A stretch of DNA of 64,000 bases, taken from positions 26,405,972 to 26,469,971 of the forward strand of contig OZ316891.1 in NCBI GenBank assembly GCA_973895155.1, read 5' to 3'. The notes beneath the pieces were generated by a model that saw only the letters and a program-made list of their open reading frames with translations, did no database searches and was not told the origin of the DNA. This document shows positions 14,346 through 44,098 of this stretch, one piece after another. The DNA comes from Marsupella aquatica (Eukaryota; Plantae; Marchantiophyta). The translations under genes and the position numbers were made by a program. Position 1 is the first letter of the stretch; each line of letters opens with the position of its first letter.

Positions 14346-15087
14346 TGTCGTGTTAGAGTACATCGATGTACCAGCTGTGTGATGACTGCAAACCTATCTA
14401 GTAAATGCACTTGCTATCCTATCAACTATCCACTGGCATGCAGAAATAGAAACAAAAAAATATCTGATCTACTCTAATAACAAAATATGAGACGAAGTGA
14501 GTCCGGAGTCAGCAAATGTGTGGTACGCTATACTAAAGGGCGAAAAACCGTGAAGCAGCAATGTAAGTGCTAACCCACGATAAAAAATGACTGTCACTTT
14601 TGTAATCGGCGGAGACGCTAAGTAGCTATCACAATGTGTACGAATGGTGAGCTCCTCCTAACAAGAAATGAGCAAGTATAACTGGATTCACTTAAGAACT
14701 GAAGTGAATGAAGCAAGACCTAGGAGGTATACCCCCTGGGTCCCAAGGGATGGGCTGCCTCACCAGATAAGGCAATCTGTGAGGAGCCCTCCCAGCCATT
14801 GAGACCTCTCCATAAGAGACAAAATAGTGGTGTGCAAGATAGAATAATCTCATATTAGGCTAACCTACCAGCTAACTAACTTAATTGACTACATGACCCT
14901 ATCCGGTACCGCCGTCTCCTAGGTGGTGGTAAGGCGGGTTGAATCCCAAGCCGCAACCCTAGCGTCAGTCGCTCACCAGCCGCTACGTCTATTTGGCAGT
15001 GCCCTAAATTAATCATGATCACCGCTAACTAGGATAGTCGCTCAAACTCGAGTATGTGATTAAGCGCCGATGAGGGTTTGCATGACA
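14346..15087 (-). repeat. 3' LTR of the DNMT-PHD gypsy
   Basis: Inverted termini TGTCGTG...CATGACA; interrupts the RNase H of the host element after GTGGT; partner LTR not in window. Confidence 0.7.
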
Positions 15088-15089
15088 AT

Positions 15090-15219
15090 TGTCGTGCTAG
15101 AGTGCATTGATGTACCAACTATGTTGTGACTGCAAACCTGTATAGTGAATACACTTGCTATTCTATCAGCTGTCCACTAGCATGCAAAAATAGAAACAGA
15201 AAAACATTTTATCTACTCT
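15090..15219 (-). repeat. 130-bp duplicate of the LTR end (copy of 14346-14475)
   Basis: Colinear ungapped match with scattered substitutions; separated from the LTR by AT. Confidence 0.9.
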
Positions 15220-15234: not shown

Positions 15235-15541
15235 CTACTGGCCTCGTCGATTGGTGGTAGAATGATGTTGCCTAGTGCAGGCATCACAAAACCACTGACA
15301 TTCTGGAATATTGTGCAAGAGGTGTAAGACAAAACAAATGAAAGCCGTTGTTACAACGATCGCAAAGCAACATAAGATGAGCATCATCAATGCGACGACA
15401 AATTTGACAAAGATGATCCATAGATGGAACCCAGTATGCAGTAATTACAGTAGGATGAAGATTAGGTAGGTGGCATGGGGCACAATTTTTGAAGCGATCA
15501 TTGATGGTATGACCATCTGACCTTCCAACAAAAGCACTCAA
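15235..15541 (-). pseudogene. PHD finger at the C-terminus of integrase
   Basis: CQICRRIDDAHLMLLCDRCNNGFHLFCLTP, then after a frameshift LHNIPECQWFCDAC, giving the C4HC3 pattern. Confidence 0.9.
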
Positions 15542-16635
15542 GATACCCGTACTTCCTTGATTTGAAGAATAATCTGACCTGCGGAGGTGTCCAAAATATT
15601 TAGAGTCTGTCGTTGTAAGTAGATATAATCTCCAACTTCAAATTTGTAGATTTTGGGACGGTAGCTGCCACCACGGGTGTAAGCATAGCGCAAAGTATCC
15701 CGATGTTGAGCAATGTGAAGGTTTTGCATGGCCATAGGCATGACTCGCTTGAACAAAGCTGCTTTGTCTAAAATGACCTGAGCCCAAACCTTCTCATTGT
15801 CTAGGTCCACTATCTGGACCATGTGCAATGCAATGGCAGAGGGTGGTACCAGATGTCGACCAAATAATAGAAAATAAGGAGAAAATAATGAAAGAGCTGC
15901 ATGCTTGGACATACGGTAACCCATAGCAATATAGGGTAATTGTAGATCCCAATCAGCCTTGCTTTTGGTAAGGCAAATCTTGCGTTGCCCTTTCTTACAT
16001 GTCTGGATCATGCATTCTGCAAGACCATCAGCTTGTGGATGATCGCATGATGTCCTCCTATGATCAATGAGCGCATGGTCAAGGAGGTCTTGAAACTCTC
16101 CTCTAAACTCTGTTCCCTGATCAGTTAAGCATTCAGCACATGCACCAAATTGGTTGAGAACCTGTTGTAGAAATGTCTGGCTGGTGCTGTGGGATGACTT
16201 GTTACGCAGTGGCACTAACTCAATCCATTTTGAAAAGTGCTCAATCATAATCATCACAAAGATATTACCCCTAGGTGTAATTGGTAAGTCACCAGCCAAG
16301 TCACAAGACCAAAGGTAGAATAACCCCTCAATTGGCAGAGGTCGCAACTACATCTGGCGGTCAGAGGATAAACTCTTTACTCGATTGCATTCTGCACATC
16401 GAGCCAACACATCCCTCACTTGTGTGTACATACCTCGCCACGTGAAGTGAGGAGTGAGCAAGTTGTGAGTTTGTTTGATGCCAAAATGCCCCAACTTTGA
16501 ATGGACCTTTTGTATCAGTGCTGGTCTTTGCAACACACGCGGAACCACTCGATCCCCTGATGGGAATAGCCGGGTCAAATGGTTACCCTTCCATGCATAC
16601 CGACATGCTCTATGTTGGATGCGCTCTCTCTCCAT
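15538..16635 (-). pseudogene. pol: Gypsy integrase (H2C2 zinc site, rve core)
   Basis: HSKLGHFG...CAEC; WSCDLAG, LTDQGTEF, HPQADGLAE. Confidence 0.92.
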
Positions 16636-16814
16636 GAGGGTAGCATTAGAAGGGAAATCCTCCTATTGTATGTAGTGTAGGGTTGCATAATCATTCCATA
16701 TATCTGCAGATGTAGCCTCAGCAACTTGCACATCTGCCAATAGTGCCAAGCAAGCAGTAGCGGTTGGTTAAGTGGTAGCATCAAAATCTTGTCTTGTAAC
16801 CGTGTGATCTTCTG

Positions 16815-16996
16815 TTGTACTCAGAGGACTGCATGACATTGCATCAACATTCTGGTGGGTGACTCCTGGTCGATGGATGATGTCAAAAGTGTACTCCTAC
16901 AAGATCAATGCCCACCTAGCCAGCTTACTAGTCAGTTTGTTATTAGTCATCAACCATTTAAGTGGCTGATGGTCTGTGAACAACACAAACTTCTTA
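16815..16996 (-). pseudogene. pol: RNase H C-terminal half
   Basis: KFVLFTDHQPLKWL...LARWALIL.EYTFDIIHRPGVTHQNVDAMS; continues the frame broken at 33552. Confidence 0.9.
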
Positions 16997-17330
16997 CACT
17001 AGTAGAAACCGGGGGGTATTTAGACCCCATTAAACGACTATTCAGTACCGTATAGGACTTGGAAACGACTGGGAAGGACTCTAGTCCTTTATAGGACTGC
17101 GAGTCGTATGTTTTGTTACTATAATCAACTGAGTCCTTTATAGAACTGGTTTATAAGTCGTTTAATAGTTTGGATTTTCAGTCTATTTTAGTCTTTGTGT
17201 GGGTAGCTTTGGTGAGTCATTTTTAGTCTTTTATGGGCTGCGATGATGAGTCGTTGGGAACGACTAAAAAGGTTATGGAGGGTAGTCTTTAAATATACTT
17301 TGTGGGGTATGTATAAGTCTTTTATGTCAA
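16997..17330. repeat. Left TIR and subterminal GACT/AGTC-core repeats
   Basis: AAACGACT, AGGACT, GAGTCG and TAGTCTTT repeated in both orientations; the same motifs occur at 33395-33530. Confidence 0.8.
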
Positions 17331-17822
17331 CTGGATATGAGTGATGAAGACCCCACTATACTACTTGGAATGAACCCACTCTTGTGCACAAATAACATAT
17401 TGCATTCATGTTTTATTGTGTACTTGGAATGAACTCACTCTATAAGTTCACCATTCATCATGTTAACATTAGAATACATAGTTTCAGAAAGCCATCTTCT
17501 ATACCATGTACACTAATATGAATTCACAGATTCAAACTTCATAGACTACAAAGAAGGTCACAAAGTATTCCTGTATACCATACACACTAATACTGAAATG
17601 ATAAAATAGATTCAAGTATCATAGACAATCACCATAGAGCCATAGTTTGACATCAATCACTTGTTTCATACATACAGAATTCAGAAATATCAATGTCACA
17701 CACAACGTCTCCTTCATCCTCTTTACCAAATGGAAAAATTGGTACAGATATTTCTTGGATCTTTCCAAGGCAATGTCAAAATGTGACACAATTCACATGA
17801 TGCTATCTACACTTGCATTCAG

Positions 17823-18311
17823 TCACTGCAGACTAACACACTCTGATGGCCAGAGCACAAGAGATCCTACTGCATCTGCAATTATTTCCTGAGGTGGATC
17901 ATCGTCTCTATTCGGAAATGGCAAATTACAATCAGATACAATCACTGTAGTCAACAACACTACTACATGGTCATCCGGGACCACTTTGCCATGGAATTTT
18001 GCATGATCCGGTCGCAAAATGCCTGTACCCACACATACCTGCGAGTCATCCTCCCATGATAGAAGATTATGGACTGGCTCTGCTGTGGCTATCACCTCCA
18101 CCTTACCCTGGCTGTTTTTCTTGGCTTTCCTGGGTGGCTTATACATGACATTATTCATACCTTGGTTGCGAGTCATGACTTTGGCATGAGTGTTTTGTGC
18201 TGGTGATCGAGAATTGGCTACACTCTTCTTCAAAGAATCTGCATCCATATTTGACACTTCTGATTGTGTAGCAGGATTTCCCTGCGACATCATCTCAGTA
18301 TCTGCCAACAT
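17823..18311 (-). CDS. Last exon of CACTA TnpA-like gene (Tnp1/En-Spm C-terminal domain)
   Basis: VGTGIL..HGKVVPDDHVVV...LPFP....IADAVGSLVLWP motif typical of CACTA second-gene C-termini. Confidence 0.7.
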   Translation of the reverse strand: MLADTEMMSQGNPATQSEVSNMDADSLKKSVANSRSPAQNTHAKVMTRNQGMNNVMYKPPRKAKKNSQGKVEVIATAEPVHNLLSWEDDSQVCVGTGILRPDHAKFHGKVVPDDHVVVLLTTVIVSDCNLPFPNRDDDPPQEIIADAVGSLVLWPSECVSLQ

Positions 18312-18989
18312 TGTACTTGCTTCAATTGAAGCATCTACAATCTTGCATCCAATGTTGCTCCCAAGTTTCGACGTCGCTTCACCCTACTCCCACTTGGTTG
18401 AGAGTCTGTCAACTCTGCATCAACTACAATTCAGTGTCATGTCCAACATAAGTCAATCACTCATCACATGTGCTAAATGTACATGTCACCAACCACAAAG
18501 TTGTCACTATCTCCTTACCATTATGAACAGCCTTCTTCCCCTTCTTTGCCATTGCCATATGCTCCATGTCTGCTTCTGTTGATCAATAAACACACCACAA
18601 TATTCAGGTTGAATCTATTAACCACTGAATTGTTGCTCAACATTCATATAGAGGAATTTAAAGCATCAGCTTACCTGATACCTCCTTGGCTATGGTCACT
18701 GAGGCACTGGGCACATCTTCTTCATTATTGCTCTTTGAATCACCTGATACATCAATCATGATGTCACTTCAGATCCCAGTTCATCCAACCAGTTCTTACA
18801 GAAAAGATTACCTCCAACCGGCTTAAGCTTCACAAAACTCCATGCACTTTTCAAATGTAATGTATTGGATCATAGCAGGTTACCTGTCTCAGCAACCTTC
18901 TTGCCCTTTTGCTTACTAATTACAGGGTCCTTCTCTGCCTCCACTCTTCCTGCATTCAAACCATTCACTCAATTCATGAAAACTTACTT

Positions 18990-19271
18990 CTAACATTTGA
19001 ACATAGGACACAATGAACAATGGGCCGGTGTCATTTCCATACCTGTGTCAGATTTGCCAATTCCCTTTTTTGTTAACAAGGACACACTTTGTACAATGTT
19101 GCCCTCATTGTTTGGTTGGGAACCACCCAATTTTTCAATCACAAGCTTGAAATTAGATTCCACTGATGCAAGAAGGTTCGCTACAAATGCCTCCACAATA
19201 TCCAAACGATCAGCCAATTTACTTTCCACTCGAGGGAGTCCACACTCTAATGACTTCAACCGTTCACACAT
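18990..19271 (-). CDS. Probable internal exon of TnpA-like gene, coiled-coil
   Basis: Heptad-like RLDIVEAFVANLLASVESNFKLVIEKL; same strand; flanked by GT/AG-like sites. Confidence 0.4.
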   Translation of the reverse strand: MCERLKSLECGLPRVESKLADRLDIVEAFVANLLASVESNFKLVIEKLGGSQPNNEGNIVQSVSLLTKKGIGKSDTGMEMTPAHCSLCPMFKC

Positions 19272-19622
19272 CTCTGTGAGAGTTGTAACAGTTCCCTGTC
19301 ATAACACAGCTTACATATCTCAGATAACTGTCCCCAAGAACTGGTTGCTTACTTCCTACTACATTTCTTTCTGATGCTCAAGGCCAAATAGTCACAGAAC
19401 ATATAGAATTACAACATAATCACCTGTTTGGAAGTTACACTTGTCACCTCACTCCTTTGTTTCATGAACTCCTCTCTCACTTCTTGTGCTGATGGTTCTT
19501 CACCTGTCAATTTCTTCTGCAGTCCACATCAACATACATATGAATGAAACCAAGTGTTGATTGTCAATGAAAATGTAATAATGGTAGCAAGATGATAAGT
19601 TTGAGGCTTACTATCAGGCATG

Positions 19623-20285
19623 TCACTGCCTTACCAATTGTTCTTTCACTGGAGCATAACTTCCTCTCCCAGCCTGTGAAAGGTGTTTCACTTTGCCTCG
19701 AGCATTTGACATCAGTTCACTCTTGCTCTGTCCAGCCTCCGACATGAACCCTTTGATTAACCGTGTCCATTGATCCAGTTCCAATGATGGGGGTGGTGGC
19801 ATTCTCCTGTTAGAACCATTGTCTATCCACATCCTTTTCAACCTATGCCTCTCTTGTTTCAAAATCCTCATTGCATAATCTGATATGCAATCCTCAACTG
19901 GGCCCTTACCATCATTACCAACATACTCCCACCGTTCAAGAATGTCCTTGCAGATAGCAGCCCAATCAGCTTTGTTCTGACTCCTAAACTCTGTAATGCT
20001 CAAATCTAACCAACGCAATACTTCTCCTCTTAGGTCAGAATGCCAACAGTTCTTACCATCACATGTGGGAGTTATCCAACCTTCGGAATTCACTTCTACT
20101 TTACCAAATTTGTTACTGTCTCCTGCCTTGGTACTCCCTGAAGCGCTACTAGGTGTCCCTCCACGGCCTGGTGTCCCCCCACGGCCTGGGGTCCCTCCAC
20201 GGCCTGATCTCCCCCCACGGCCTGGATTGCATTGTCCAAACCTCCCTGGAGTCCCTGCACATTTACAGGATCCATTTATAGTCAC
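19623..20285 (-). CDS. CACTA TnpA-like exon (Ptta/En/Spm transposase_24-like) with GRGGTP repeats
   Basis: RHRLKRMW..PPPSLELDQWTRLIK..SELMSNARGKVKHLSQAGRGSY; 18-bp repeats at ~20155-20225 encode GRGGTP. Confidence 0.75.
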   Translation of the reverse strand: MTINGSCKCAGTPGRFGQCNPGRGGRSGRGGTPGRGGTPGRGGTPSSASGSTKAGDSNKFGKVEVNSEGWITPTCDGKNCWHSDLRGEVLRWLDLSITEFRSQNKADWAAICKDILERWEYVGNDGKGPVEDCISDYAMRILKQERHRLKRMWIDNGSNRRMPPPPSLELDQWTRLIKGFMSEAGQSKSELMSNARGKVKHLSQAGRGSYAPVKEQLVRQ

Positions 20286-20618
20286 TTACATTAGGTAAGT
20301 ATGAATCATAAATCCCGCTGCCAAATATACAGTGGACTTCAGAGCAATTCTGCAATGACCAAGTTACCTCTCCCTTGGCGCATAGATGGTTCTGGACCAC
20401 CTGTCCTATTGCTTTGTCTTGATGAATTAGGGGCGTTTCTCTCGCCTGTGAATGATTGCCTCCTATCTGAACGTGGATGGCCTTTGTTGTTTTCGTGATT
20501 GTCCCAATCAGAGTCTGCATACCAACAGGTACATGCCACACTCATGGACCTGTAAGATAAACTCTTTGCCCTAGCTACACATCAGATAAGTGCATATTGA
20601 GCTAAATCTCTACTACCA

Positions 20619-20990
20619 TCACAAAATCACTAGCACAAGGCACTTACTTGTCCAATCATCCTCCTCACCTTTCCATTGCCCTCTGTACCCGTCTCTACCA
20701 CGCTCTGGGTGTTCATATTCATCCCATCCATCTTCTGCTCCATCATAGTCATCATCATAATCATCAGGCGTCCCTTGCCAATAACTCTGGCTCCTTCTAG
20801 GGTATGGATTATGTGATTTCTCTCTAGCTGCCCACCTACCTGGGACTTGATGAGGGCCCTGTGCATCTTGCACAGGTGCATTTTTCTGTGAGCCCCCTGC
20901 ATCTGGGTCTCCATCCATATCCAATCTTTCCTCTTCACCCCACTCTCCAAGCCCCATGTCTGTCTCCATGTCATCACCCTCTTCCCCCAT
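20619..20990 (-). CDS. Acidic, Gly-rich probable first exon of TnpA-like gene
   Basis: ATG ORF rich in D/E/G; GTAAGT donor near 20650. Confidence 0.45.
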   Translation of the reverse strand: MGEEGDDMETDMGLGEWGEEERLDMDGDPDAGGSQKNAPVQDAQGPHQVPGRWAAREKSHNPYPRRSQSYWQGTPDDYDDDYDGAEDGWDEYEHPERGRDGYRGQWKGEEDDWTSKCLVLVIL

Positions 20991-21167
20991 AGCTTTTGCA
21001 CAGCACCCACAACCAAACAGGGAGAATCAGCACACTAAATTCAAAGTATCAATCAATTTCATGCATATCCAACTATCCTAAACATCATTCCAGGCAGCAA
21101 TTCCCGTTATGTGACTCTGTGCAGGTAGTCATCCTCAACCTCATACTTGCCAATCGCCAGCTGTTGC

Positions 21168-24100
21168 CTATTGCAAATCATCAACCTCATCATATTCCAT
21201 TTGCCTAGGTTCATCATATGTCTCTCTCAATGTTAAGGGGATGTAGTCAGTCCCTGCCCGAGTTGGAAGTACAGTCTCATGACTAGGATGCTCGAATGCA
21301 GCATGGTCATCCAAACTGAACTCTACTTTACTTCCATCCATCCGCCTGTTCCGTGCTTGGCTATGGCATACCACCCTCCAGCCATGTGACTCCTCCACAT
21401 CTGCAAAGAAAGCCTGTTCAACTTGGCTAGGGAAAACAAAAGGCTCAGACCATTCTGGTACTCTGGACCTAAAATTGGCCAACAAGAACCCATCATGATC
21501 ACGCTTCATGGTGGCCCTTGGTCTCTGCCACTCTGATTTCACCCATGATCCCTTCATCAATATCACTGGGACACTTGTGTTACCATAATTCAACACCCAA
21601 ATGTCGGTCAACTCCCCCACGTAACCCATCTTCATCCACCCCCTCTGTTCTTCAGAGGTTCTCTGCTCAAACACAGAAATCAAACCACAATCATATGATA
21701 CACAATGGTCACCCTGCTCATCCCTCACTCGATAATGATTTCCATAAGCTCTCATCCGTTTGTAGGTCAGAATAGACAATCGTGGTGGCACAGATAGAAG
21801 ATACAAATCCTTCTCCATATCTGGGTGATGTCTACTATGCTCTCGAATTGTCACCCGAATCCACTGCTCGAACTGTGGGAAGGGATCCTGCTGCCCAGAG
21901 TGTGCAGCTTTTTGCATATCATATTCCCTGCATTATGAGGTACAGGCATAGTTAGGTCTAAACAACACATGACAACCTAAGATCACCCTTGGAACAGACA
22001 AGAAGCATCACAACAAAGGCAAGTCAATTCAATCACTCACCTCCACCATGGTTGCATAGGCTCTGTGTTTGCCAGCACATATGAATGAGCCTTGTCTCGA
22101 ATCGCAACAGGCAGCTGAACAGCACGTCCCACACCTTCAACAACCTCGCCACTCACTCCATCATCTTCACCAGATTTCCAAACTCTTGTCATAGCTTCAC
22201 CAGACCCAGCCATGTACTCTGTTAGGAATCCCAACGTCTCATCCTTAATGTACCCCAATGCCATGGAAGCCTCTGGCCTGTAGTATGTTCTCACATGACC
22301 TTTCAACAACTTCATGTATCGCTCCATAGGGTACATCCATCTGGTACTGACTGGCCCATACTGCCCTAGCTCTTCTACCACATGGATTAGGAGATGAGTC
22401 ATAACATCAAAGAAAGCAGGGGGGAAGTATATCTCCAAGTCACAGAGGACATAAGCAGCATCCTGCTTCAACTGCTCCAATCCTTGGGGATCCCACACTT
22501 TCACACATATACGGCGAAATACATTGCACAGTCGAAGAATGACATTACGGACTGGTTTCTGCATGAGACCTCTGAGGCATAGGGGCAGAATGTGCTGCAT
22601 CAACACATGGTAGTCATGTGTTTTCATACTGCCAAGTTTATTCTTTGTAATATGCTTCTTGAAGGCACCAGCATAGCCAGAGGGCACTTTCAGACAACTC
22701 AATCTATACAAGAATGTCTTCCATTCATCCTGTGTGCACACATAGGGAGCTTGGAACTTGAGAAGTACATTGGGATTGCTTGCATGGGGCTTCAACCAAA
22801 GGTGAGGGCGAATCCCCTTCTGTTGCATATCAGCTCGAACTGCTCCTGTATCTTTCTCACCCGACAAGAACTTCAGCAAGCTCTCACAAATATTTTTCTC
22901 AATGTGCATGACGTCCACATTGTGTTTGCTAGGCTCGAATTCCTGCACTCCACAAAGCAAAGAATTCAACAACAGAAACACTAATTAACCACATAGGAGG
23001 ATTGTAACCAACATCAATCCACCATTGCTCCAATCTAAAATTGCAATCATACAGGGGCTGGAGGCTAAGTACATTACCCTCCAGTACTCCAACTCCAAGT
23101 CCATCAAGGTCTGTCTTTTCACACCGTGTTTCACCACTGGATCCTCAAGTTCTCGATCAGTGGCACTTCTCTTGTCCCAATCAGCCTTCCTGGCTGCCCA
23201 CCTCAGGACTTGCTCTCTGGTGACCCTCTGTGGTGGGCCACGAAGCTCTGTTTTGTTGTTGAAGTGTGCAATTTGAGACCGTGTGTGCCTGTAAGGATGA
23301 TCAACAGGCAGATACCTTCTATGCCCCTGAAATTTCATACTGTGCAGGGCATGCGACCACTCACTTGTCACATTTTTCCCACATGGTGTGCACCCCACAT
23401 AGCCCTTTGTCACTCGTCCAGATATGATGCCATGGCCTGGGTAATCTGCTATATCCAGCAAACAAATTGCATGCAGTCTAAAGGGGCTGGGTCAAAGAAG
23501 CCCCTTCAGAACATCATGGGTTAACACCCCTTCTATCCACAAAGTCTTCCACTCTTCCACTGCTGGAGCCAACATGATATCTATGAATTGCTCGGTCACA
23601 GAAGCTGGTCCAGGGATTAACAGCACCATCATGACAAAAAACCTCTTTGTAGTCATCCATGGGGGAAGGTTGTAATTTAGCAGCGTAACCGGCCAACATG
23701 AATAACGGTTGTTTTTGTCTCCAAATGGGTTTACTCCATCCAGTGATAGACCAAATCGAAAGTTCCACTTCTTTGCAGCAAACTGTGGCCACCTCTCATC
23801 AACAAATTTCCAATGGTTGGAATCTCCAATGTGACGCTGCAGGCCATCACTGCTCTTGTTATCAGGAGTCCATGTCATCAGCTTGGAAATGGCAGGGCAT
23901 CTAAACAGACGTTGTAGTCTAGGAATGAGAGGAAAATGACGAAGAACCTTGGCAGGGTGTGTACATTTCCCTACATTCTTGTACCTGTGCTTACCACAAT
24001 GAGGGCATGTCAATTTATCTGCATGCTCTTTGCGAAAGAGAACACACCCATCAGGGCATGCGTCAATAGACACATAGTTCAGCCCAAGGTTAGACATCAA

Positions 24101-24868
24101 TTTCCTAGCCTCGTACATATTTTTTGGAATTGAATTACCATCTGGTAACACATTTCGGCGCAGGAAGGTCAACAACTCTGTCACAAATATATTGGGAACA
24201 TTGTGATTGCCACAGATGTTCAACAACAACACGACAAAACCCAGCTTGGAGCAGTTCGACCCCTCGTAGATAGGAATGCAAGCTTCTTTGATGTGTTTTG
24301 GGCCCCCAAACACCCACTCCCTCTCTGCTGCACCTTCCCCAATGTCAAAGTCAGGTTGAGCTTGGCCGTCGCCAATGTGTGGCTGCGGTTCATTGTCCTC
24401 TTCTGATTCCACTGTGTCGTAAAAAGCATCAAGGTCTTCAAAAATCTCTTGAACCATTCTTGGGACATCCATCCCACCGTCCTCAGTGACTGCCTCTGCA
24501 TCTCCATCTTGGTCATCCACGTTCTCATGTTGGACCCCAGGACCATCCTCTGCACAGTCTATGTCCTGCTCTACGTAGTCTCTACGCCTAGCTGTATTAG
24601 AATCCACAAAGTCAGCTCTCCACTCTTCATCAGAGGAGTCTTCTTCTGCTGGTACATTCCAAACCCTCCACCGAGGGTGCCTTTCATGCCGCAGCAGGTG
24701 AAGGTGCACAGTGTTCAAACTCAATGACTTGAATCCTTGGCACTGTGTGCATGGGCATCTCATCCTCCTACTCCTACCTTGGGCGGCCCGGGCTTGTTCA
24801 TGCATCCACAATTTAGAATCATGATGCCTAATCCTAAATGGGTTGTGAAGAGGCAACCTTGGAGCCAT
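21168..24868 (-). CDS. tnpD: CACTA TnpD/Tnp2 transposase, 3 exons, one in-frame stop at 23492-23494
   Basis: CPCTQC, DACPDGCVLF, LSLDGVNPF, YSCWPV..YNLPP, DYPG, DVMHIEKN, MKTHDYHVLMQ, RWMYPMER, EPFVFPSQVEQAFF; introns at about 23077-22943 and 22040-21929. Confidence 0.93.
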
Positions 24869-25194
24869 CACTATACACACGCACTCAGCACCCTGTCATT
24901 TTATTATGCAAGTGAAAAATACACTTCCTGTTAAGGATTTCACCCCCGACTGTACTTGCCAAAATACGTAATGTTCCAAAAAAACAAAAAAACAAAAAAT
25001 ATAGGTGCCTGAGTCATGTACCTATTCTCAAGTGAATGAGACAAAATTCCTAAATGTTTGAGGGTGTCAACTCCTCCGCTGTCCTCACATGTACTGCCTC
25101 TGCACGTACATCCATGACCATATCAGAGTCCAATCATGTATAGTCATAGACACAGGTGCCAGGTGCGAGACCGGTGTGAGATGTCCTCATCTTA

Positions 25195-25764
25195 CTACCA
25201 CATCAAATACGGATACCAATCCTGTTGTCGATGCCACTCAGCCCTGAGGTACTCAGGCATGTACATTAAGTCATCAAGGTCTAAACCCTGCTCATGCCAT
25301 GGTGGTCTTCGATCCGTGCCTACAAGCAGTGGCAGCAGTGCCCTCCATGGTGCACATGTTGCTACCAAGTCCCTCCACTGGGTACTAATTAGTCTATATT
25401 TGCAGATATCTTGTGCGCCAGACACCACAAGAACCCTCGGCCAGACATGTGTAAGAACTATATCATCTGCCAAATCAGGCAACAAGGAACCACCTACAGC
25501 ATCGTGCTTGTCTAACTCATCTGCTGAAAAGTAAATGTCCTCTTCCGACTGTGCATCCTCATTCACCACAGCATTCACAACACATCCAAGGTCTGCAGGC
25601 ATTATCTCGGATGGAGCTACACTCTGTCTGGTTACCAATCCACACAAGTAAGCCCAAGCAGTAGCCATGCACGATGCAACCCGTAGGAGGACCCTACATA
25701 GGGCCTGACGGTCTGGAAGAGGCAGCATACCCACCAAAGTCTTCAGCCAAACAGAGCCCAGCAA
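25195..25764 (-). CDS. F-box-like cargo ORF
   Basis: LLPDLADDIVLTHVWPRV...ICKYRLISTQWRDLV fits the plant F-box motif; no kelch/LRR domain follows; start codon uncertain. Confidence 0.65.
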   Translation of the reverse strand: MLGSVWLKTLVGMLPLPDRQALCRVLLRVASCMATAWAYLCGLVTRQSVAPSEIMPADLGCVVNAVVNEDAQSEEDIYFSADELDKHDAVGGSLLPDLADDIVLTHVWPRVLVVSGAQDICKYRLISTQWRDLVATCAPWRALLPLLVGTDRRPPWHEQGLDLDDLMYMPEYLRAEWHRQQDWYPYLMW

Positions 25765-25904
25765 GTAGATTCACAGTCACACCCCACGCAGCAGGAAACA
25801 ACAATCACTTCAACTGCGACCAACCATGACAAGATGAGTTAGTTCAAGGATCACATTTATTACAAAATTGTGTTTTATACAAAAATATGAGGGACTCCTA
25901 CTCC

Positions 25905-26753
25905 TCACTCTCTCCCACCTTTGCTAAGCATACATCTCTGCTGAATCTTGGAGGGCCAGGCCTCAAAAATATCAAAGTCCCAAGCATTCTGTCGCTTCCC
26001 TCTAGCTGCTGATTCCAGAAGCCAATCAGGGGAAAGCACCCAAAGATTGTTGTTCATGACAAAATCACGCACTGTTGTCTTAAAGAATTTTCTGCATATT
26101 TTCATGTATGACAGACCTACAACATGAGTGGAGGTTTCTGTTAGACTCTCCTCCACTGTCCCACCTAGCTCAACAACTATAGACTTGTACAGTCTGCACT
26201 TAGTCTCCCCAATTCCTTCTTCTGCAAATACCACACTGAACCCCTTCATAATGGTATTTCTCTCCTTGCCATGCTTATTCAATATAGCATCTGCACGCAT
26301 AGGATGGTGTCCTATGTTGACAACAGGTCCATATTGGACAGAAGCAAAGTTGGGTTTCTCTGCCGCTGCTTCATAGGCTTCCTTTTCAGCCAAAGCCTCT
26401 GCAGTGGCCTCCTCACTCTCCCACAACTCATATTGCTCAGTACTCTGTACACACCTATGTTTAACAGAATCGGTCAGCCAAGAGACTTCAACTACTTTTA
26501 GACCTTGGTTGGTAATGGCAGAATCAATGAAGGACCATGACCACTTGTTCATCACATCCAGCCATGTCCCCGCAACAACATGTGTAGTCTGTGGAGTGAT
26601 GTCCTTGACTTCAGTCCCATGGAACTCTGAGAATCGTTTTTGTACGATTGGCCAACTCACTTGGGTGAACCCATAGTGGCCAGGAATCAAAATGGCTTTG
26701 ATTCCAGCCAACAGAGGCGGGTGGTCAACCTTTGTACGTTTCCTAGAGGCCAT
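25905..26753 (-). CDS. Tandem BRCT-domain cargo protein
   Basis: Two repeats: ITPQTTHVVA...VVEVSWLTDSV and ELGGTVEESLTETSTHVVG...VLSPDWLLESA; N-terminal basic RKRTK. Confidence 0.85.
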   Translation of the reverse strand: MASRKRTKVDHPPLLAGIKAILIPGHYGFTQVSWPIVQKRFSEFHGTEVKDITPQTTHVVAGTWLDVMNKWSWSFIDSAITNQGLKVVEVSWLTDSVKHRCVQSTEQYELWESEEATAEALAEKEAYEAAAEKPNFASVQYGPVVNIGHHPMRADAILNKHGKERNTIMKGFSVVFAEEGIGETKCRLYKSIVVELGGTVEESLTETSTHVVGLSYMKICRKFFKTTVRDFVMNNNLWVLSPDWLLESAARGKRQNAWDFDIFEAWPSKIQQRCMLSKGGRE

Positions 26754-27351
26754 GTACACACGGGCCACCTAATCACTGCAGACCGGAAGATAATGCGTTC
26801 ACCTGATAATCGGAGGGCCCTTAAAATGCTGCGTTTATAACTTGGTCCAGTCCAGTCGTCTGGTGAGTCTCTGCTCCGATTCCAAACGGGAGAAATATTG
26901 GGACAAACGTACTAGACACCTGCAAGCATGCACCTCATAGTTTGAATATGTGCCTTCACAATATTGAAGGTGACAAGTGCAATTGTTTTGTGATGCCACA
27001 TACAGATGTTGTAAATGGGCAGACATTCAATGAGAATACAAAATGTTGGTACACTTTAAGGGAATTCTCGCAAATTAAATAGCCTTGTAACTTATATGCT
27101 CATAATGAGAAGTCCTGATTTAATTTAAGCAGTGTCATGTAAGTCGTGATCAAAATGATTGCAGAGTTAAAAAAGTTCCTAGAAGGCTTAAGGGCAGTTT
27201 TTGAAGGCATGTACCCAGGAACAAGTAATGAACTTAGGGTACTTGTTGCCTAAGCATCCTCTCCTACAGAGGTCCTTCTTCTCAAAATTGGAATGTCTGC
27301 AATCTCCAAGGTATCCACATCAGGTGCACTATGCATGTATATTATTCAGGT

Positions 27352-28032
27352 TCAAAGCCAAGAAATGTGATCTCTCATGGGAGTGTGCAAAGTAGGATCT
27401 ATGGCATGGCGATGACAATAGAAGATCCATCGATCAACACCATGTGCAGAGTGATCATAGATGTGTCTGTCACAAGCATAGCCTTCTGCTTGACGCTCCT
27501 TCAAACAATGAAAGTGCCACATGGTGGGACACCTAACACAGTGGACTATGTCCACCCAGAAATCTTCATCGTGCTGACCACATGCCTTGCACTTATGAAG
27601 TGGGCAAGCTGTGGCAAGATCGGGCAAACATGAAAAACAAAAGAACCTCACACAATATCTGTCAGGGCATTTCCTAACAAGTGGTGGAGCATCAACAGAG
27701 CCCTCATAAGACCCCAACTTCCCACACTGTGCACACTTAGCCTGCTTCTCCAAACAATCAGTGCACATCCAGCCTCCCTGGTGTGCTGACGGGAGGCCCA
27801 CCCCTGGACAGTTGTTTTCTGCAGCAAGGTCAGACTCCGGGTTGAGGTGGAAATGCCTCATGCAAGGGCCCTCACATATGGCTAAGCCACCACCATCGTC
27901 ACAAATGGCACAACAATGAGCTGCCTTCTGGAAAATCTGACTTGCGGAGAAGTTACTACCATCTGGCCCAACTACACCTGTGTTGCTCACCTCTGTCCCC
28001 CGCTTCTTGGCTCGGATTTTAGGGCGTGCCAT
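27352..28032 (-). CDS. EDM2: EDM2-type composite PHD-finger cargo protein (reader module only)
   Basis: CAICDDGG..CEGPCMRHFH, CAQCGKLGS, CPLHKCKAC, CVRCP..HFHCL, IFYCHRHAIDPTLHTPMRDHI; colinear with the EDM2 PHD region as recalled (CAICDNGG..CEGSCLRSFH..CPLHKCSVC..YCQEHEIDEELLTPVRDHV). Confidence 0.85.
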   Translation of the reverse strand: MARPKIRAKKRGTEVSNTGVVGPDGSNFSASQIFQKAAHCCAICDDGGGLAICEGPCMRHFHLNPESDLAAENNCPGVGLPSAHQGGWMCTDCLEKQAKCAQCGKLGSYEGSVDAPPLVRKCPDRYCVRFFCFSCLPDLATACPLHKCKACGQHDEDFWVDIVHCVRCPTMWHFHCLKERQAEGYACDRHIYDHSAHGVDRWIFYCHRHAIDPTLHTPMRDHISWL

Positions 28033-28701
28033 GCCTACGCATGAGATAGATAGTACAATTTAGCAGAGTGCACGGACAATACAATTTAGTGCAGTGTACA
28101 AAAAGTACAGTGTAGCATATAGACTAGAGTGGCAATTGCTACTGCAATGAAATGTTCACACACATGTGCAGAGTAGACATACTTTTTGGTTTGTTGAGCC
28201 CACACTAAAAACTGATCCCCTCGTACAATAGCTCCACCTACACCTCAATTTTGTGGCTATGATTCACCAAAGGAGATCTGCAACAAGATTTAATGCATTT
28301 GAATCACATATAACAGTCGTGACATGTAAAACAGGCATTTTTTGAACAGGATTGGTATCAAGCACTGTGATCAGGGTTGTAATTTATACATCCTAAATAG
28401 GCTATGATAGTGAATGAGACAAATAAGTTAGGCAGAAATCACTTTTTCCAGGTTATCACATGGCCCATTAATTCCAGTCTTTGAAAGGAGACTTTTAAGT
28501 GAGCTTGCTAGCCTCTTAAATTAGGATATTGTACTTAGTGCAGCCATAATAGGATAAGTTATGTACTGTTGACCCTAAACCCTGGACCCAAAATTGGTCA
28601 TAATTCAAAATCTTAAGTAAATATCCTCTCTGTTCAAGTCAAAGTGTTAAGTTATAGGTCAATGGTCTCTGGTTTGTGCATGCGGTGTGACAAGTGGTCC
28701 T

Positions 28702-29151
28702 CTAGAGCGTGTGATCCAAACATGTGTAGACACCAAAGTGACCGGTGGTGGGGTCTGGGAGGGCAGGACAAGTGACATCGCCAGGCACACTGCAGGATGG
28801 CGAGTGGTTCCAGATGATACATTGTGCTCTGTGAAAAAACCGACATCCAAGAGAACGGTCATCCAACTCTAGGCCAGAAGCCCTACAGGCAGGACAGTCA
28901 TATTGGCAACTGTGCACACACCCTTGGGCCCTAATTTGTGGCGGGTCATGTATGAGAGACAGAAATACCAAGGATGTTGGGAAGGGTGGAGAAGCAGGTA
29001 CAGGCCGGCTGTAGTTGTTCCTGGCAACAACTGGGTACTCAAAGTACCATGCAGACTGGGCTGGAAGGATCCCAAGTCTGACATACTCAAGGCGCAACAT
29101 CTCTGCCTTGCGTGCAAGCCGCACATGTTCAGCGTTGCGGGTCCTCACCAT
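28702..29151 (-). CDS. Cys/His-rich ORF of unknown function
   Basis: ATG start, 149 aa, CVHSC..DCPAC...C..FH...C..WNH; same strand and spacing as the other cargo ORFs. Confidence 0.45.
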   Translation of the reverse strand: MVRTRNAEHVRLARKAEMLRLEYVRLGILPAQSAWYFEYPVVARNNYSRPVPASPPFPTSLVFLSLIHDPPQIRAQGCVHSCQYDCPACRASGLELDDRSLGCRFFHRAQCIIWNHSPSCSVPGDVTCPALPDPTTGHFGVYTCLDHTL

Positions 29152-30534
29152 AAGTGTTGCTTTTGTGGAGATGTCGTGTGTTCACGTCCTCTGATAAGCA
29201 CCTTCGATCAGCAAGGTGAGCAGGAGCTGTACTTGCCTCACCAACAGCAACCAACCTTAAATTATCAGTTCCCACTCACTGTGTCATTCCATTGGTTCCA
29301 GCTAGGGGTCACAGTGTAAACATAGCATGAAACACTCCTAATCAACTTGCTTACAAACTACAATATCCAGAAAGAGTGAAAGTCTCACCCTCCAGTGAGC
29401 AGCAGAGAGGTAGTTCACTAGATGTGTTGATGTGCAGTTAAACCTCCACTATTGCTTACTTCTGGTGTATGCTGCTCAGAAGAAGACATATTAGTAGCAG
29501 CAAATTGCAAATAATGGCCATAAGCAAACTGTGAGAGTTTGCAGAATGCTACGACAAATCCATCACAGCAGTGCTCCACAGGAATGAAACCAAGCAAAAT
29601 TTGGTGACCTCGGCCAATGACAAGGCCAATGTAGTGAACAATCCTTGACCGATCAGGATATGGATTGGAATTACAATTAGTCAGCTCTTCTTCTTTGTTT
29701 TCTAACTCTGGGGGAAATGAGCATGACCAGGGAATTCTTTGAGAAATAGAAGTGCACAGGGAAAATGAAATTGGCTCATTCAGCTGCGCAAGACCGGCCA
29801 TTGCAGCAAACTTGGACAGTTGTTCCGCAATACATAAAATACCCTGACTTACATGCAATCGATACAATCTGCTTCTGTTGGCTGTCCTATAGCTCACGGT
29901 AGTGCCGTTGGGATAGGGTAAGTAAATATTGCCATAGCTGAAGCACATTGAGCTTGCAGCAAGAAGTGAAGGAGCATGGCCAAAAGCAGAAAAGACAGAC
30001 AGGTTTTACAAGAAGAAACTAACAACCGCCAATCTGCTCAAATCCGCTGCATAGATCAAACCCTCCAAACTACACAGCCCTCCTTTGAAAACAATCCAAT
30101 GTGCTTTGGCTGGTGGATGACAAGGACTGGGAGAAGAGGAAACGTCTACACAATCAATCCCAATGACGGGACACAGAGACCAGGCACAGAGAGGAGTTGT
30201 GCTTAGACAAAAACCACAAATTGTAGCATGGGCGCCATAGCATTGGGCGGCAATGGGAAGAATTACATCAAATGAGTGGACAGAGAATTAATGAACAGTC
30301 CGGTTATAGGCAAACAGCGACTGATGCCCTGATGCAATGAAACACGCATTGACATAGCGGAGGGACATAAAAACTACATAAGCCAACTTACTGACCTTTT
30401 AAGGCCCACAATTTCAAGGGGAGGGACAAAGACAGCAATAACAGACGCAGAGACAAAGCTGTACTCTGTCAATTGAGTAGGCAAGTGGGTGGGTGAAGAT
30501 CAACAACCAATGTAGCAGCGCAACCAGAGTAGCA

Positions 30535-30650
30535 ACAAAGAAGCAGGTTGCCCTCAATCTCCTATTTTTCAAGCAGCTCGTGCTCGCGGTCAATCTCCTA
30601 TTCTGCAAGCAGCTCACGCTCGTCCCTCTTGTTCTGCAAGCAGGTCATTC
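30535..30650. repeat. Degenerate 33-bp tandem repeat, about 3 copies
   Basis: AAGCAGCTC.TGCTCGCGGTCAATCTCCTATT units. Confidence 0.6.
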
Positions 30651-33394
30651 TTGTCGGCGATGGTGCAAGCTGTCCTCCTAAACTCTGACACTCAAAATGA
30701 AAAGACCAAGCACCTCCAATCTGTTTGATCCCTTCCGCAAGCAGCCGAGCGGCAGACGATAATGTAGGGATCAAGAACCAAGTGCCAGGCGGACATTGCA
30801 CAAAATGAGGACCAGGGGCAGAGACAAAATCTACCGAAATCTATCGAAATCTACTTCTTGGGGTCCAGCCCACGGATGGACATCATGCAAGGTGGTCAAA
30901 AATGGTAAGTGCAATTGTTGGAGAGCTGTACTCGCGATTACTAACGGTGCATCCACAAAACGCGTCATCAAGTTGTCAGTGCGGCCACAACAATTTTGAC
31001 AGTCTCAGGATCACAGGTCCACAAACAAGTTGCAAATGAAGACACACAACGTCCAGGAGGGAAAGTCCGCAACACTAACCCTTTGTAAAGCCCCCGAGCT
31101 TACCTTCTAGCTGCCGACGCAAAGAGAAAACCTACTCGGACACTGAAGCAACCCTAAACTCAAAGTCTCACCTTAGCGCAACAACTCCTGGATTGGATTC
31201 AGCTAGCTCAGGCTCAATGAAGCATGTCGCCTCGGGCTCTCCGGATCCTCCCAAGGCAGCAAACAAGTTAGGGTCCACGGTCCTTGTACCTTCACCACAC
31301 CGTTGTGTCCTTCCCAATGCCTCCTCTGTAGTTGCGTCTTGTCTGCAACTCTACAGCTCCCCGTGTTGCTCTGCCGCACTTAGTTATATTCCAACGCCCG
31401 ATCGTGACCAAAAAGAGTTTTCTCCTGCTGGACAGCACTAGGCATTTATTCAATCTCTTGATCACGCGTAAGCAGCTACAGGTATGAATCACTCAGTTGG
31501 CAGCTCAATACGCTTACAGCAAGAGGGCGCAATAGGTAGAAGCTCGCGCTACCTAGACCAGCACAAGGACAAAGCATTAACATTGAAACTGTACCATGGA
31601 GCTGGAGAAAACCACAGAGTAATTGAAGCCTAACAATACCCTTCTTAGCTCCCGACTCCAAACTCTCGGCTCCCAGTTTGCAAGAACAAGCACTATGAAA
31701 ATATGGATTCCCACATTGACTGTGTCCGCAGAACAGATGCAACCCGCATGCAACTTCACCAGCTCAACGGCAGCTTGACAACTGAAGGACCTCCCAATGA
31801 GCCTCACGGCCTCCCGATGCTCGTTATGGGTGCAGCAAAAGGGTCTATACCACAACTGTGACCGAGATTGTCACCCAAAACCTTGAAGAAACCCCAACCT
31901 CCGACTCCTCAAACTCCGACAAGCTCCTCACGAACGTTGCAGTAGCCACAACCTTCTTCGCCCTACCAGCCAAAAACTAAATGTCCCTAAAGGAGATCGA
32001 GCAGGAATGCAGGTCTATGAGTAGACTGCAAGCGCAAGGTTAGATCACTGCAACTGCCTGAACACTGCTCCTCGAGAGCATAAACAAGCACATAACGCGC
32101 GGGAAGTTCACTCCGCAATGGTCGCAAAAAGTGGGCAACACTGAAAGGAAAACCCTACGTAAAACCCCGAACACTCCACCCCTCACGTTCTAAGTTCAAT
32201 GACAATGGCGAAAACTCCAAAGAGACTCCCAAAGTGAAGTTTAGTGCCTGAAACCGAATTAGGGGAAGCCACTCAGCCTTACCGTTTGAGTGAGCCGTTG
32301 AGTGTCACCCAAAGTGGGACAAAGCTACAAAGTGTTACTGCATGGCCAACTTAGGCAATGAATGGTCATATTTGCACATACATGGTCGGTAGTGACATTT
32401 TATTGCACGCTGTAATCAGGATTAAGGTTGCCCAACATTATATCCGATCCTAAAATGCAATATTCCCGGTGCAAGAATGTGACCTAGCTCTAATGTATGA
32501 AAAAGGACCGGTACAAATCTACCTTTGTGCATCTTGACCTTTTATAGATGGATTTAGTAATGGCCAAGAATATCTTGACCATCCCTCCATGGTCCAACCT
32601 CCATGAACCCCACTTCATTAAACCCAAAACCTTTTTGGTCACAAATAAGGAAATTTAATGAGTTATGCCCCTTGCTATCACCCTCTTTATAGATTTATTT
32701 TTTTGTTTGAAATTTTACATTTATTCCGCGTGAACCCCACGGATGGGGGAACCAGTAGGCCAAATGGCATCATAAAACCTCAACACCCAAAGGAGGCAAT
32801 AATAAAGAGTTACTCAACCAGGGTCATCAGATCAGGCAAAGATTGCGAAGCCGTTCTTCTAGTGGTCCATGCAACAAGTAACAACTAGGGAATAAGCACT
32901 AGAAGGCGCAGTAGGTCAGCATAGTGTAAGTGTAAAGTGTCAAAGCATTGTCTAGTACTAAATTAATCCACCTGATTAGTAAGAAGGGGGTGTATACTGT
33001 AATGGGAAAAAGAAAAAAAAACCAAGGCATGAGCAAGGGCCACCAAGAGTGGTGCAGCTATAAGCTATAGGGATTGAACACAATGCGGGGGGGGCAGTGG
33101 CACTATGTATGAGGAAATCATGGGAGTATCGGTGTCAAATGAGTCGACAAAACTCCCAGATAGCCACACAGTATAAATCAATCTCATAGAAGGCTGCCAT
33201 CAATGGAGGAAACAATTTGACACGACCCACATCTGAGAGTGTGAATTCGCTCGATCTCCAGCAGTTCTTTGGCACTCGATAGACGTCGGTGCTTTCGGCT
33301 CAAAGATGAAGGAGAATTACCCCTCCTCAACATAGAGTGAACATTACCCATGATGTGCTAGACTATTCACCCTTCACAAAGTAGCAAGGTTACT

Positions 33395-33551
33395 TCTCAT
33401 AGTCTTTTAGTGAACCATAAAACTCTCATAGTCTTTTCTAGTCTTCAACAAAACCGGTGCAATGGGTGCGAGTCGTTTTAAGTATGGAAAAAGGACTTAG
33501 TGGGCATAGTCCTATAAGGTATGGTCTAAATTGCCCCGGTTTCTACTAGTG
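33395..33551. repeat. Right subterminal repeats and TIR of CACTA
   Basis: TAGTCTTT, GAGTCGTTT, AAGGACT; ends CCCCGGTTTCTACTAGTG. Confidence 0.85.
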
Positions 33552-34800
33552 TTACCATATAGGTATGGTCGAAAATATACCACAACCCATATCATAGCAA
33601 GTAGCTCTCCTTCATAGGATGAGTAGTTGTTTTTGCCTTGTTGTTATTGTGTAAAGCATAGGCAACAACATACTCTGGTTCACCATCATCCTGCTGTCCT
33701 AGAATGGCTCCAAGACCAATAGCACTCCAATCAATGTGAAGAATGAAAGGGATCCTGAAATTGGGATGCCAAAGAACTGGGTGTGTAGTCAGTACTGCTT
33801 TGATCTTTTCAAATGCAGTCTGTCGTTCTGCGGTCCAACACCATGGGGTTTCCTTTTTCAATAATTGATTTAGAGGGCTTGCAATGGTACTGAAATTCTC
33901 AACATGTGTGCGGTAGTAGTTACACAGACCTAGAAAGATACATAGTTTGTTGACATCTATAGGTGTCTTCATGTTGTTGATAGCCAGGACCTTGGCCTCC
34001 TCTGGCATGAGTCCATCTGGAATCACTTGGTGTCCCAAATAGATCACAGTGTTCACCCTAAATTCGCATTTCTTGGGATGATATTTGAGATTAGCTTTTC
34101 TGAGCCTTTTGAACAGATCCTCCAAATCATCCATGTGCTGGTCAAATGAAGGGCTGTGCACTACAACATCATCAATGTAACATTTTATGTGTGCTGCACC
34201 TTCCTTCACTATATCTATGACCTTCTGAAAGAAGATGGCTGCATTCACTATGCAAAATGGCAGGCATAGCCATTCCCACAACTTGTCACTGCCATGGAAT
34301 GCAGACTTCTTTCTGTCCTTCTTTGCCACAATGATTTGGATGAACCCTTGCCGTAGATCTAAAATAGAGAAATATCGAGACTTTTCTAGCCCATCAAAGA
34401 TCTCTTCTGGTGTGGGGACATGATATCTATCCAACTGAGTTACCAGATTGAGTGCCCGATAATCCCCAGACATCCTCGTCTCTGACCATAGACCGCTGCT
34501 ATCCTTCAGATTTGCTTGCATGATTGTGGGAGCAGCAAAAGGGGAACTTGAAGGTCTGATGAGACCTGCCTCATGTAGTTCCTTGCATCTGGCATCCACC
34601 AACTCCCACTCATGCTGGCTTAGTCAATGCTGCTTCCAAAATATCGGTATCTCCTTAGTCAATGGAATTGTGAATTCCATTATGTTGCACTTCCCTAAAT
34701 CCTTCATAGAGAATGCAAAGCAATCTTTGTACTCATTGATGAGTTTCTTCATTTGGAGCTTCTGGGTTTGCCGTTAGTTGTTCTCCCATGGTCCACTCAA
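33552..34800 (-). pseudogene. pol: Gypsy RT and RNase H N-terminal half of the DNMT element
   Basis: DYRALN, LDLRQGF, YIDDVVV, YLGH, FLGLCNYY, LHIDWSAIGLGAILGQ. Confidence 0.95.
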
Positions 34801-34889: not shown

Positions 34890-35975
34890 TTAACTGGGAC
34901 CTCTCCCCCCAAACCATTGGTTTGAAACCTGTGGAAGATGTAAATCTATGGGAGAAAGTGTCTCAATAGCAGCTACCGCCTTCGTGGTATGTTGCGCGTT
35001 GGTGAGCATTTGAAAAGCCAAGCAGGAGGACAGTACCCATGAAAATCCTGTGAGGTCAAGCGCTTGGCCTAGCAATTTGTTGCGTTGATGTTTTGTAAGA
35101 CTAGGGTGCAGAGTGCTCCCTGTCTGAAATCCCATAGCGCGCTCGCGCTCCTCTAGGGATGGTGGCTGCCACTGTTGTCTGGCCTGTCGGAATACCAGCC
35201 CTAGACCATCTCCCCAAAATGCAAAGGAGCCCGAGAAGGATAGTAGTATGGGCCATACTGCCCATGGTGTGCCTATGCGGTTGGCTGGAAAGAACGGTGC
35301 ATGTTTAGTCTGTACCACTGATCGAGGCAGACTGCCAGGATCCAAAATTTGTTGTAATTGTTGTGAAGGATCTGGCTTAGTCTCCAACAGAACCAACTTA
35401 AGAATATTATGTGGTGCTAGGTTAGTCCACAAATTGCGTAAACAATGGGCATAAGACCCGCATTGAGCTGCATCAATGAGGAATGGATTGCTCAACAAGT
35501 GTTGAACAACAGCAAAATCTTTCAACACATCAGTCTGAGAGTCAAACTGTGTAGGTGCATTTTCCAAGATGTAACCCACACATGGGTTGCGTTGTTGTAT
35601 CCAACCAAGCACCCGAAGTAGATCCTTGAACAACATTGAATGGTTATCTCGTAAACCTCCACCTGTGCCTACTACAAAAAATCCTTGGCACTCCCAGCCA
35701 GCAACTACCAAATGTATAGGGCCTAGTAACTGGATGTGGCGTTGTTGGATAAGTTTGATATCCGGAGGAAGAAATGTGAGAGCAGGCTCCCATGCTGTGG
35801 TAGAAAAGAGTTGGAAATACTGTTTACTTAGGGTGGCAAGATGTTGAGGCAGCAATAAGCGTGCGGCAACATCTGTGTCATAGTACACATACTTGTGTAT
35901 CCGTAATCCATACTTGAGAGCGGCCTCAAGCCCAGTAGCTAGTCCCCCAAATAATTCCACAAATGTGATGCCTTT
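34890..35975 (-). CDS. C5 DNA cytosine methyltransferase domain (DNMT3-like, copy A) inside gypsy pol
   Basis: Motif I VELFGGLATG, IV AGWECQGF, VI ILENA, VIII AHCLRNLWTN (copy B AYRLRNLWTN), IX EERERAMGF, X RNKLLGQALD, in canonical order; more than 350 open codons. Confidence 0.9.
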   Translation of the reverse strand, partial: KGITFVELFGGLATGLEAALKYGLRIHKYVYYDTDVAARLLLPQHLATLSKQYFQLFSTTAWEPALTFLPPDIKLIQQRHIQLLGPIHLVVAGWECQGFFVVGTGGGLRDNHSMLFKDLLRVLGWIQQRNPCVGYILENAPTQFDSQTDVLKDFAVVQHLLSNPFLIDAAQCGSYAHCLRNLWTNLAPHNILKLVLLETKPDPSQQLQQILDPGSLPRSVVQTKHAPFFPANRIGTPWAVWPILLSFSGSFAFWGDGLGLVFRQARQQWQPPSLEERERAMGFQTGSTLHPSLTKHQRNKLLGQALDLTGFSWVLSSCLAFQMLTNAQHTTKAVAAIETLSPIDLHLPQVSNQWFGGRGPS

Positions 35976-37661: not shown

Positions 37662-37665
37662 TTTT

Positions 37666-37683
37666 TGGCGCTAGATGGAGGGG
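37666..37683 (+). promoter_or_regulatory. Primer binding site, tRNA-Asn type
   Basis: TGGCGCTAGATGGAGGGG, one mismatch from the complement of the plant tRNA-Asn 3' end as recalled (TGGCGCTAGAAGGAGGGG). Confidence 0.8.
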
Positions 37684-44094: not shown

Positions 44095-44098
44095 TAAG

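Follow-up and report, generated by a model that had tools for sequence, protein, structure and literature searches.

The window, a 64-kb stretch of DNA analysed over its whole length, contains the minus-strand remains of a retrotransposon with the order gag-PR-DNMT-RT-RH-INT-PHD. The 3' part of gag, the aspartic protease and a linker into the DNMT (53159..54533) were located by tblastn with the protein P0001 and with translations of the loci L001 and L059, and by the junction. They are followed by a DNMT3-like cytosine methyltransferase domain (35010..35975), recognized by phmmer similarity to DNMT3A, a motif table and the fold of a sister copy, and by a frameshifted reverse transcriptase with the 5' part of RNase H (33552..34797; Pfam RVT_1, E 5.7e-21). 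The 3' part of RNase H, with a stop at 16899, occupies 16780..16996, and the integrase, comprising an HHCC finger, a D-D-E core and a C-terminal region, lies at 15410..16746 (Pfam Integrase_H2C2, E 1.2e-14; rve, E 1.1e-10), with both the HHCC and the D-D-E residues present. The last coding feature is a C4HC3 PHD finger with a short tail to the stop codon (15235..15409), which exceeds the curated cut-off of PF00628 (E 2.4e-8) and matches PHD fingers of the PDB; this finger had already been recognized in the preliminary description, and its eight ligands are all identified.

Two regions foreign to the retrotransposon interrupt these parts. Nested LTR-type insertion(s) at 35976..53158, with TG...CA ends and a 5-bp target duplication, cut the element just before DNMT motif I and part the DNMT from the protease and gag. 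A CACTA DNA transposon (16997..33551) encoding Transposase_21, DUF4216 and DUF4218 lies within RNase H, has matching inverted ends and is flanked by a 3-bp target duplication at 16994-16996 and 33552-33554. When this insert and one duplicate are removed in silico, RPYLYG joins KKFVLFTDHQPL in frame, and the empty site (joint 16993 to 33552) is spanned by contigs of other copies in 4/4 runs from two studies. The ends, the duplication and the empty-site contigs thus indicate that the two halves of RNase H belong together, so that the integrase-PHD part and the RT/DNMT part at 33552-35975 are one element. The exact rejoining of RNase H claimed in the preliminary description is therefore borne out, as is its assignment of integrase and PHD finger to the DNMT element, which the family-wide linkage reported below also supports. 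Besides the transposase, the CACTA transposon has BRCT (E 6.5e-14) and NSD-like PHD matches at 25905-28059 (minus strand), and its summed contig depth is far higher than that of the retrotransposon.

At the 3' end of the element, a B-A-B arrangement of repeats spans 14346-15219 on the minus strand. The inner copy of repeat B (15088..15219) is preceded by a short G-rich polypurine-like run and meets repeat A at a CA-nn-TG junction; repeat A (14476..15087) begins with TG and is placed as in the loci L001, L028, L036, L053, L059, and L076. The outer copy of repeat B (14346..14475) is 84.7% identical to 15089-15219 and carries the end motif common to related loci. Its CA terminus is the 3' end of the element, inserted into the RNase H region of a plus-strand neighbour. 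By analogy with these loci, a second copy of repeat A probably once stood at the 5' end; neither a 5' repeat A nor the start of gag was found in the 64-kb window, where only the 3' one of the two element ends is seen.

The plus-strand neighbour, at about 12000-14345, is a related element that has RT and RNase H and, in its gag, a weak match to P0001/L011; protease, DNMT and the start of RT seem to be missing from it. A second partial DNMT copy on the plus strand (8957-9588) is 87.6% identical to 35206-35810 and retains both motif VIII arginines. The window also contains a young copia element at 55953-62659 (plus strand), with LTRs 99.1% identical and a 5-bp target duplication, and an older one at 434-6260. 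An ORF of a neighbouring copia element finds its best named match (59%) in the liverwort Riccia fluitans, which, together with the mostly streptophyte protein cluster matched by the DNMT (below), points to a non-seed land plant as the likely host.

The copy in the window is dead. Stops occur at 16899, 16770, 16665, 16350, and 15540 in the RNase H-integrase frame read from 16995, and frameshifts are found near 15520, between integrase and PHD, and near 15318, within the PHD. All eight C4HC3 ligands are recognizable (15409-15277) but are spread over two frames, the last two lying in the other frame because of the frameshift near 15318. Contigs from 4/4 runs carry a short indel at 15317/15318, so that sister copies are unlike the window copy at this break. 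The DNMT retains its catalytic Cys and Glu-Asn, while the first Arg of motif VIII is changed. Owing to the stops and the two frameshifts, the "one polyprotein" of the preliminary description applies to the family, the nearest subfamily of which has a single reading frame, and not to the window copy itself. An uninterrupted arrangement, which it had proposed to look for, does exist in the family: one ORF of 2358 aa reads PR-DNMT-RT-RH-INT-PHD.

Terminal repeats and classification

Related loci share the layout A-coding-B-A-B, TG...CA ends, the CA-nn-TG inner B/A junction and 4-bp target duplications. The B-A-B arrangement is present in 24 of the 53 loci with >=800 nt after the PHD, and partial or absent in 29. 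Target duplications are perfect over 4 bp in six of the ten loci with both ends, two of these six being one insertion; they show no sequence preference, and none of the perfect ones is NCGN. A complete direct 5' LTR was not found, as repeat B adjoins the 5' repeat A in 0/21 loci, nor was a tRNA primer site, since TGG does not follow the 5' repeat A in any of the 20 loci shown. A 15-base complement between the middle of repeat A and the A-internal boundary was found in two of six loci (L001 and L037), with 13, 10, 8, and 8 bases in the others, and is consistent with self-priming.

The order PR-RT-RH-INT, the Gypsy-type RT and RNase H, the HHCC/DDE integrase, the TG...CA ends and the duplication within the 4-6 bp range are those of Ty3/Gypsy elements, while the two complete direct LTRs and the tRNA primer-binding site of this superfamily are absent. 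With the Selgy and Phygy lineages of REXdb (PMC6317226) the family shares the character of non-chromodomain Ty3/Gypsy elements of non-seed plants and a 4-bp target duplication. These lineages, however, are listed with tRNA primer sites (tRNA-Ala in Selgy, tRNA-Trp in Phygy) and without an extra domain. Selgy elements measure 4.4-6.7 kb and Phygy targets NCGN, whereas the present relatives are 9.3-10.4 kb long and show neither a primer site of the TGG kind behind their 5' repeat nor an NCGN target. By these descriptions, and by the split A-coding-B-A-B layout, both lineages as tabulated in REXdb are excluded. A PHD finger at the integrase terminus had been attributed to Selgy in the preliminary description; this was not upheld, as the main text of the REXdb paper (PMC6317226) never uses the term "PHD", its table shows no extra domain for Selgy, and no paper containing both terms was found in the literature searched. 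A chromovirus is likewise rejected, no chromo family match being found in the window or in any full-length member scanned.

Predicted activities of the DNMT domain and the PHD finger

The closest solved structures to the DNMT by sequence are DNMT3A/B/C (phmmer E 4e-8), which are also the best folds (TM 0.73-0.74) for the model of a sister copy (pLDDT 96.6). Pfam DNA_methylase scores in the family are weak or absent, with no match for P0091, and the domain is thus easily missed. Among the 82 DNMT homologs of the motif table, with about 33-48% identity to a family member, the catalytic Cys, the Glu-Asn pair and the second Arg are present in all and the first Arg in 81. The residue before the catalytic Cys is the usual Pro in only 12 of them and Glu in 61, giving W-E-C in motif IV.

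The altered motif IV and the poor Pfam scores could indicate a non-catalytic or altered DNA-binding domain, in which case the element would possess a reader and no writer. The inactivity of the KnitGypsy-Dnmt3 domain in yeast, where no methylation was detected, points in the same direction, a result called inconclusive by its authors (PMC5890265). Such a loss of catalysis is nevertheless improbable in view of the near-invariance of the catalytic residues among such divergent sequences, the retention of the full DNMT3 fold in the model and the reported activity of the related DNMT3s of Symbiodinium retrotransposons (PMC5890265). Judged from its conserved residues, the DNMT of the family is probably active on DNA. 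CpG depletion of the window copy (observed/expected 0.33-0.43) is no stronger than that of its neighbours (0.32-0.52), and neither CpG nor CHG depletion singles the element out within the window.

The PHD finger follows the integrase core at a distance of 147-188 aa (median 165). The strict C4HC3 pattern is found in 113 of 116 PHD homologs; the column counts that follow leave out the window row. The position of the H3K4me3-cage Trp is occupied by Gly in 107/116 and by Trp in at most one, Asp follows the third Cys in 109/116, and the P-x-G-x-W motif is retained. We take the cage Trp to denote H3K4me3 reading, and an acidic residue following the third Cys, together with the P-x-G-x-W pocket, to denote reading of unmodified H3. 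Lacking the cage Trp and having the acidic residue and the pocket motif, the PHD of the family resembles, in its sequence, readers of unmodified H3.

Its solved relatives (best 60 of 85) are led by the PHD fingers of WSTF, CHD4, KMT2D, ATXR5, and KDM5 (PHD1), and include those of BAZ2A/B, PHF21A, UHRF1, and AIRE. Among these, KDM5A/B PHD1, PHF21A, and AIRE are reported to prefer unmethylated H3K4 (PMC6979384). The same source gives the H3 tail as bound by only 31 of 123 human PHD constructs in a screen. The general statement of the preliminary description that PHD fingers read histone H3 tails, given there as established, was accordingly too strong. Histone H3 itself was not found among the fetched metagenome loci.

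Linkage of DNMT and PHD across the family

The DNMT search of longer proteins yielded 18 matches. From the 237 matches of the RH-INT search the best 120 were analysed, which makes 137 distinct proteins in all. DNMT and PHD occur together in one ORF in 81 of the 137. The order RT-RH-DNMT-INT-PHD is found in 65/137, and DNMT-RT-RH-INT-PHD in five, including P0022, which also has the protease and contains all six Pfam domains in order. A search avoiding the integrase as query served as a control for bias: among the best 150 of 1083 DNMT matches in a 50%-cluster library, 53 of the 56 DNMT+integrase proteins with a complete core and sufficient room have a PHD behind the integrase.

Among the best 80 of 455 metagenome loci, which were fetched, DNMT lies upstream of RT in 44 of the 46 loci with RT, PHD and enough upstream DNA, and a PHD stands behind the integrase in 62 of the 63 loci where the latter is complete. 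A common frame without a shared stop joins DNMT and RT in 35/47, and integrase and PHD share a frame in 51/63. These counts are not independent, because several of the insertions are represented by two loci. The family is large, with 169 clusters at 50% identity matching the DNMT at E 1e-30 or better, and the top cluster in the protein Atlas for the DNMT query is mostly streptophyte. Named hosts of the RT-RH-DNMT-INT-PHD type are the green algae Haematococcus and Tetrabaena, with a partial form in Chromochloris and Volvox, while Closterium has the second DNMT position, before RT.

Several further features were observed in these searches. In the RT-RH-DNMT-INT-PHD proteins the PHD is followed by a further tail, whose median length is 324 aa (12 aa in the other type), and a few of them (P0005, P0066) contain a G-patch. 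The Atlas top cluster for residues 560-929 of P0019, an integrase-PHD segment, has Mollusca as its commonest recorded phylum (score 0.91), a lead suggesting that integrase-terminal PHDs may also occur in animal elements.

The nearest relatives of the window element are identical in the RT+INT tree (support 1.00) and in the DNMT tree (0.997). Proteins with the DNMT after RNase H form one clade in both the DNMT tree (0.96) and the integrase tree (0.95), the latter clade including 13 members without DNMT in the ORF. This agreement indicates joint inheritance of DNMT and integrase-PHD and a single change in the position of the DNMT; no direction is claimed for this change, as the FastTree roots are arbitrary or weak. 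The sole Klebsormidium match, P0057, is partial, has no DNMT, and was left out of the RT+INT tree because of its short RT match.

Between lineages, the divergence of third and second codon positions (L010 versus L011) is 0.47/0.12 for the DNMT and 0.48/0.04 for the PHD, in a protein-guided alignment that somewhat favours higher third-position divergence. The dN/dS values of 0.29-0.41 among copies of the nearest subfamily were rejected as evidence of selection. Controls shifted by +1 frame gave similar values (DNMT 0.40, RT 0.35) and first codon positions diverge as much as third, so that these ratios reflect decay with a high transition bias.

Proposed mechanism and relation to known elements

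In the reading that we favour, with a probability of roughly 0.45, the PHD finger likely tethers the integrase to nucleosomes with unmodified H3, and the DNMT3-like domain likely methylates the new DNA of the element itself. The PHD, whose spacing from the integrase core is constant, would dock the integration complex on nucleosomes whose H3 tail is unmodified, and a DNMT travelling in that particle would methylate the newly inserted element DNA. By analogy with chromoviruses, which also have a histone-reader module at the integrase C terminus, a chromodomain there and a PHD here, the PHD finger probably plays the part of the chromodomain and biases insertion away from H3K4-methylated promoters. 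In Chlamydomonas, the PHD-bearing Gypsy-7a is reported to insert into intergenic regions 2.6 times above chance, a bias that, according to the authors, may stem from selection (PMC9940879).

The two modules do not always occur together. P0046, P0071, P0073, and P0099 have a PHD and no DNMT, with a gap between RNase H and integrase of only 271-286 aa, and are nested in the clade with DNMT after RNase H. Conversely, Closterium P0014 has a DNMT and ends without a PHD, and three of the above 56 DNMT+integrase proteins with room have none. That some relatives have dropped one module and kept the other argues against an obligatory form of the coupling between chromatin-guided integration and self-methylation that the preliminary description proposed.

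In one branch, the loci L010 (4661-4663) and L011 (5083-5085) carry an in-frame stop between DNMT and RT in the context TAG-CAR-YYA, a known leaky-stop context (PMC11166343); a search pairing CARYYA with retrotransposon found nothing. This stop leaves the DNMT at the end of a Gag-level ORF, P0001 ending at the same point, and the DNMT would there be made mostly without the PHD.

Such cases are what would be expected if DNMT and PHD were independent passengers of one lineage, co-occurring by descent, the PHD aiding targeting and the DNMT having an unrelated role, for example shielding or marking cDNA or altering host methylation. This appears somewhat unlikely, as both are kept in the great majority of members, in chlorophyte as well as streptophyte hosts, despite the two DNMT positions.

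A further alternative is a processed protein that keeps DNMT, integrase and PHD together, so that the PHD would control the DNMT in cis, like the ADD domain of animal DNMT3, and the docking site would be methylated. The order RT-RH-DNMT-INT-PHD of the 65 proteins, in which the median spacing between DNMT and integrase core is 219 aa, would suit such control, as would the unmodified-H3K4 pattern of the PHD and the absence of ADD from plant and algal cellular DNMT3s (PMC12344493). In the subfamily of the window element, however, RT and RNase H lie between DNMT and PHD, and in L010/L011 the stop codon separates them, making control in cis very unlikely. The comparison with ADD drawn in the preliminary description is apt in respect of the sequence pattern of the finger; in the arrangement, the DNMT lies upstream of RT/RNase H and far from the PHD. 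Under the favoured mechanism of tethering and self-methylation, the protease would probably cut the DNMT from RT and integrase; DNMT and PHD would then cooperate as parts of a particle rather than as one enzyme regulated in the manner of ADD and DNMT3.

A bolder extension of this mechanism is that the lineage, whose hosts range from green algae to land plants, reassembled from separate parts the way in which animal DNMT3 works. A reader of unmodified H3K4 on the integrase would pick the site and a co-delivered DNMT3 would methylate the insertion, so that each jump would seed de novo methylation in chromatin without H3K4 methylation. Throughout the change of its position in Pol the DNMT would have been kept, and its dose would be set in one branch by stop-codon readthrough. 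In this full form the proposal is unlikely.

Both halves of the combination are already known separately, a DNMT3 in Gypsy elements (PMC5890265) and a PHD in Gypsy Gag-Pol (PMC9940879). The statement of the preliminary description that it knew of no DNMT+PHD combination agrees with the literature searched, most subscription papers lying outside it, where DNMT3 and PHD in one element were not found described; figure 4c of PMC5890265 may show a PHD.

The closest system is KnitGypsy-Dnmt3 of Klebsormidium nitens (de Mendoza et al., 2018; PMC5890265), which shares the Gypsy domains, a DNMT3-related domain in the Pol ORF and DIRS-like A-coding-B-A-B repeats, the likeness being one of description, as its published sequence lies outside the comparison. 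Apart from that figure, no PHD appears in the text or three supplements of that source. The present family differs from KnitGypsy-Dnmt3 in an apparent land-plant host and in its occurrence in chlorophytes with the other DNMT position.

Gypsy-7a_cRei of Chlamydomonas reinhardtii (PMC9940879), likewise compared by description, shares the Gypsy Gag-Pol and the PHD, there proposed to limit harmful insertions; it measures 15.4 kb and has near-identical left and right LTRs, and its domain list as given in that source contains no DNMT. EpiLTRs of Cymbomonas and Euglena (bioRxiv 10.64898/2026.05.21.726589) are LTR elements, too, in which a cytosine methyltransferase is accompanied by a module that reads histones. 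This module is a chromodomain, however; EpiLTRs possess an adenine methyltransferase as well, and their DNMT, sister to DNMT4, is stated to be distinct from Gypsy-DNMT3. PHDs have been called widespread in retrotransposons (PMC6673714; bioRxiv 10.1101/2021.11.30.470311).

Why retrotransposons carry their own silencing enzyme has been described as an open question (PMC5890265). The present family combines a DNMT3 with one particular predicted reader of chromatin, and its size and its members in the culturable algae Haematococcus, Chromochloris, Volvox, Tetrabaena, and Closterium make this question testable. Land plants such as tracheophytes were stated in 2019 to lack methylase-bearing transposons (PMC6338049); if the host of the window element is a land plant, the range given there needs extending. 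An element of this family likely steers its own landing site and may mark its own new copies.
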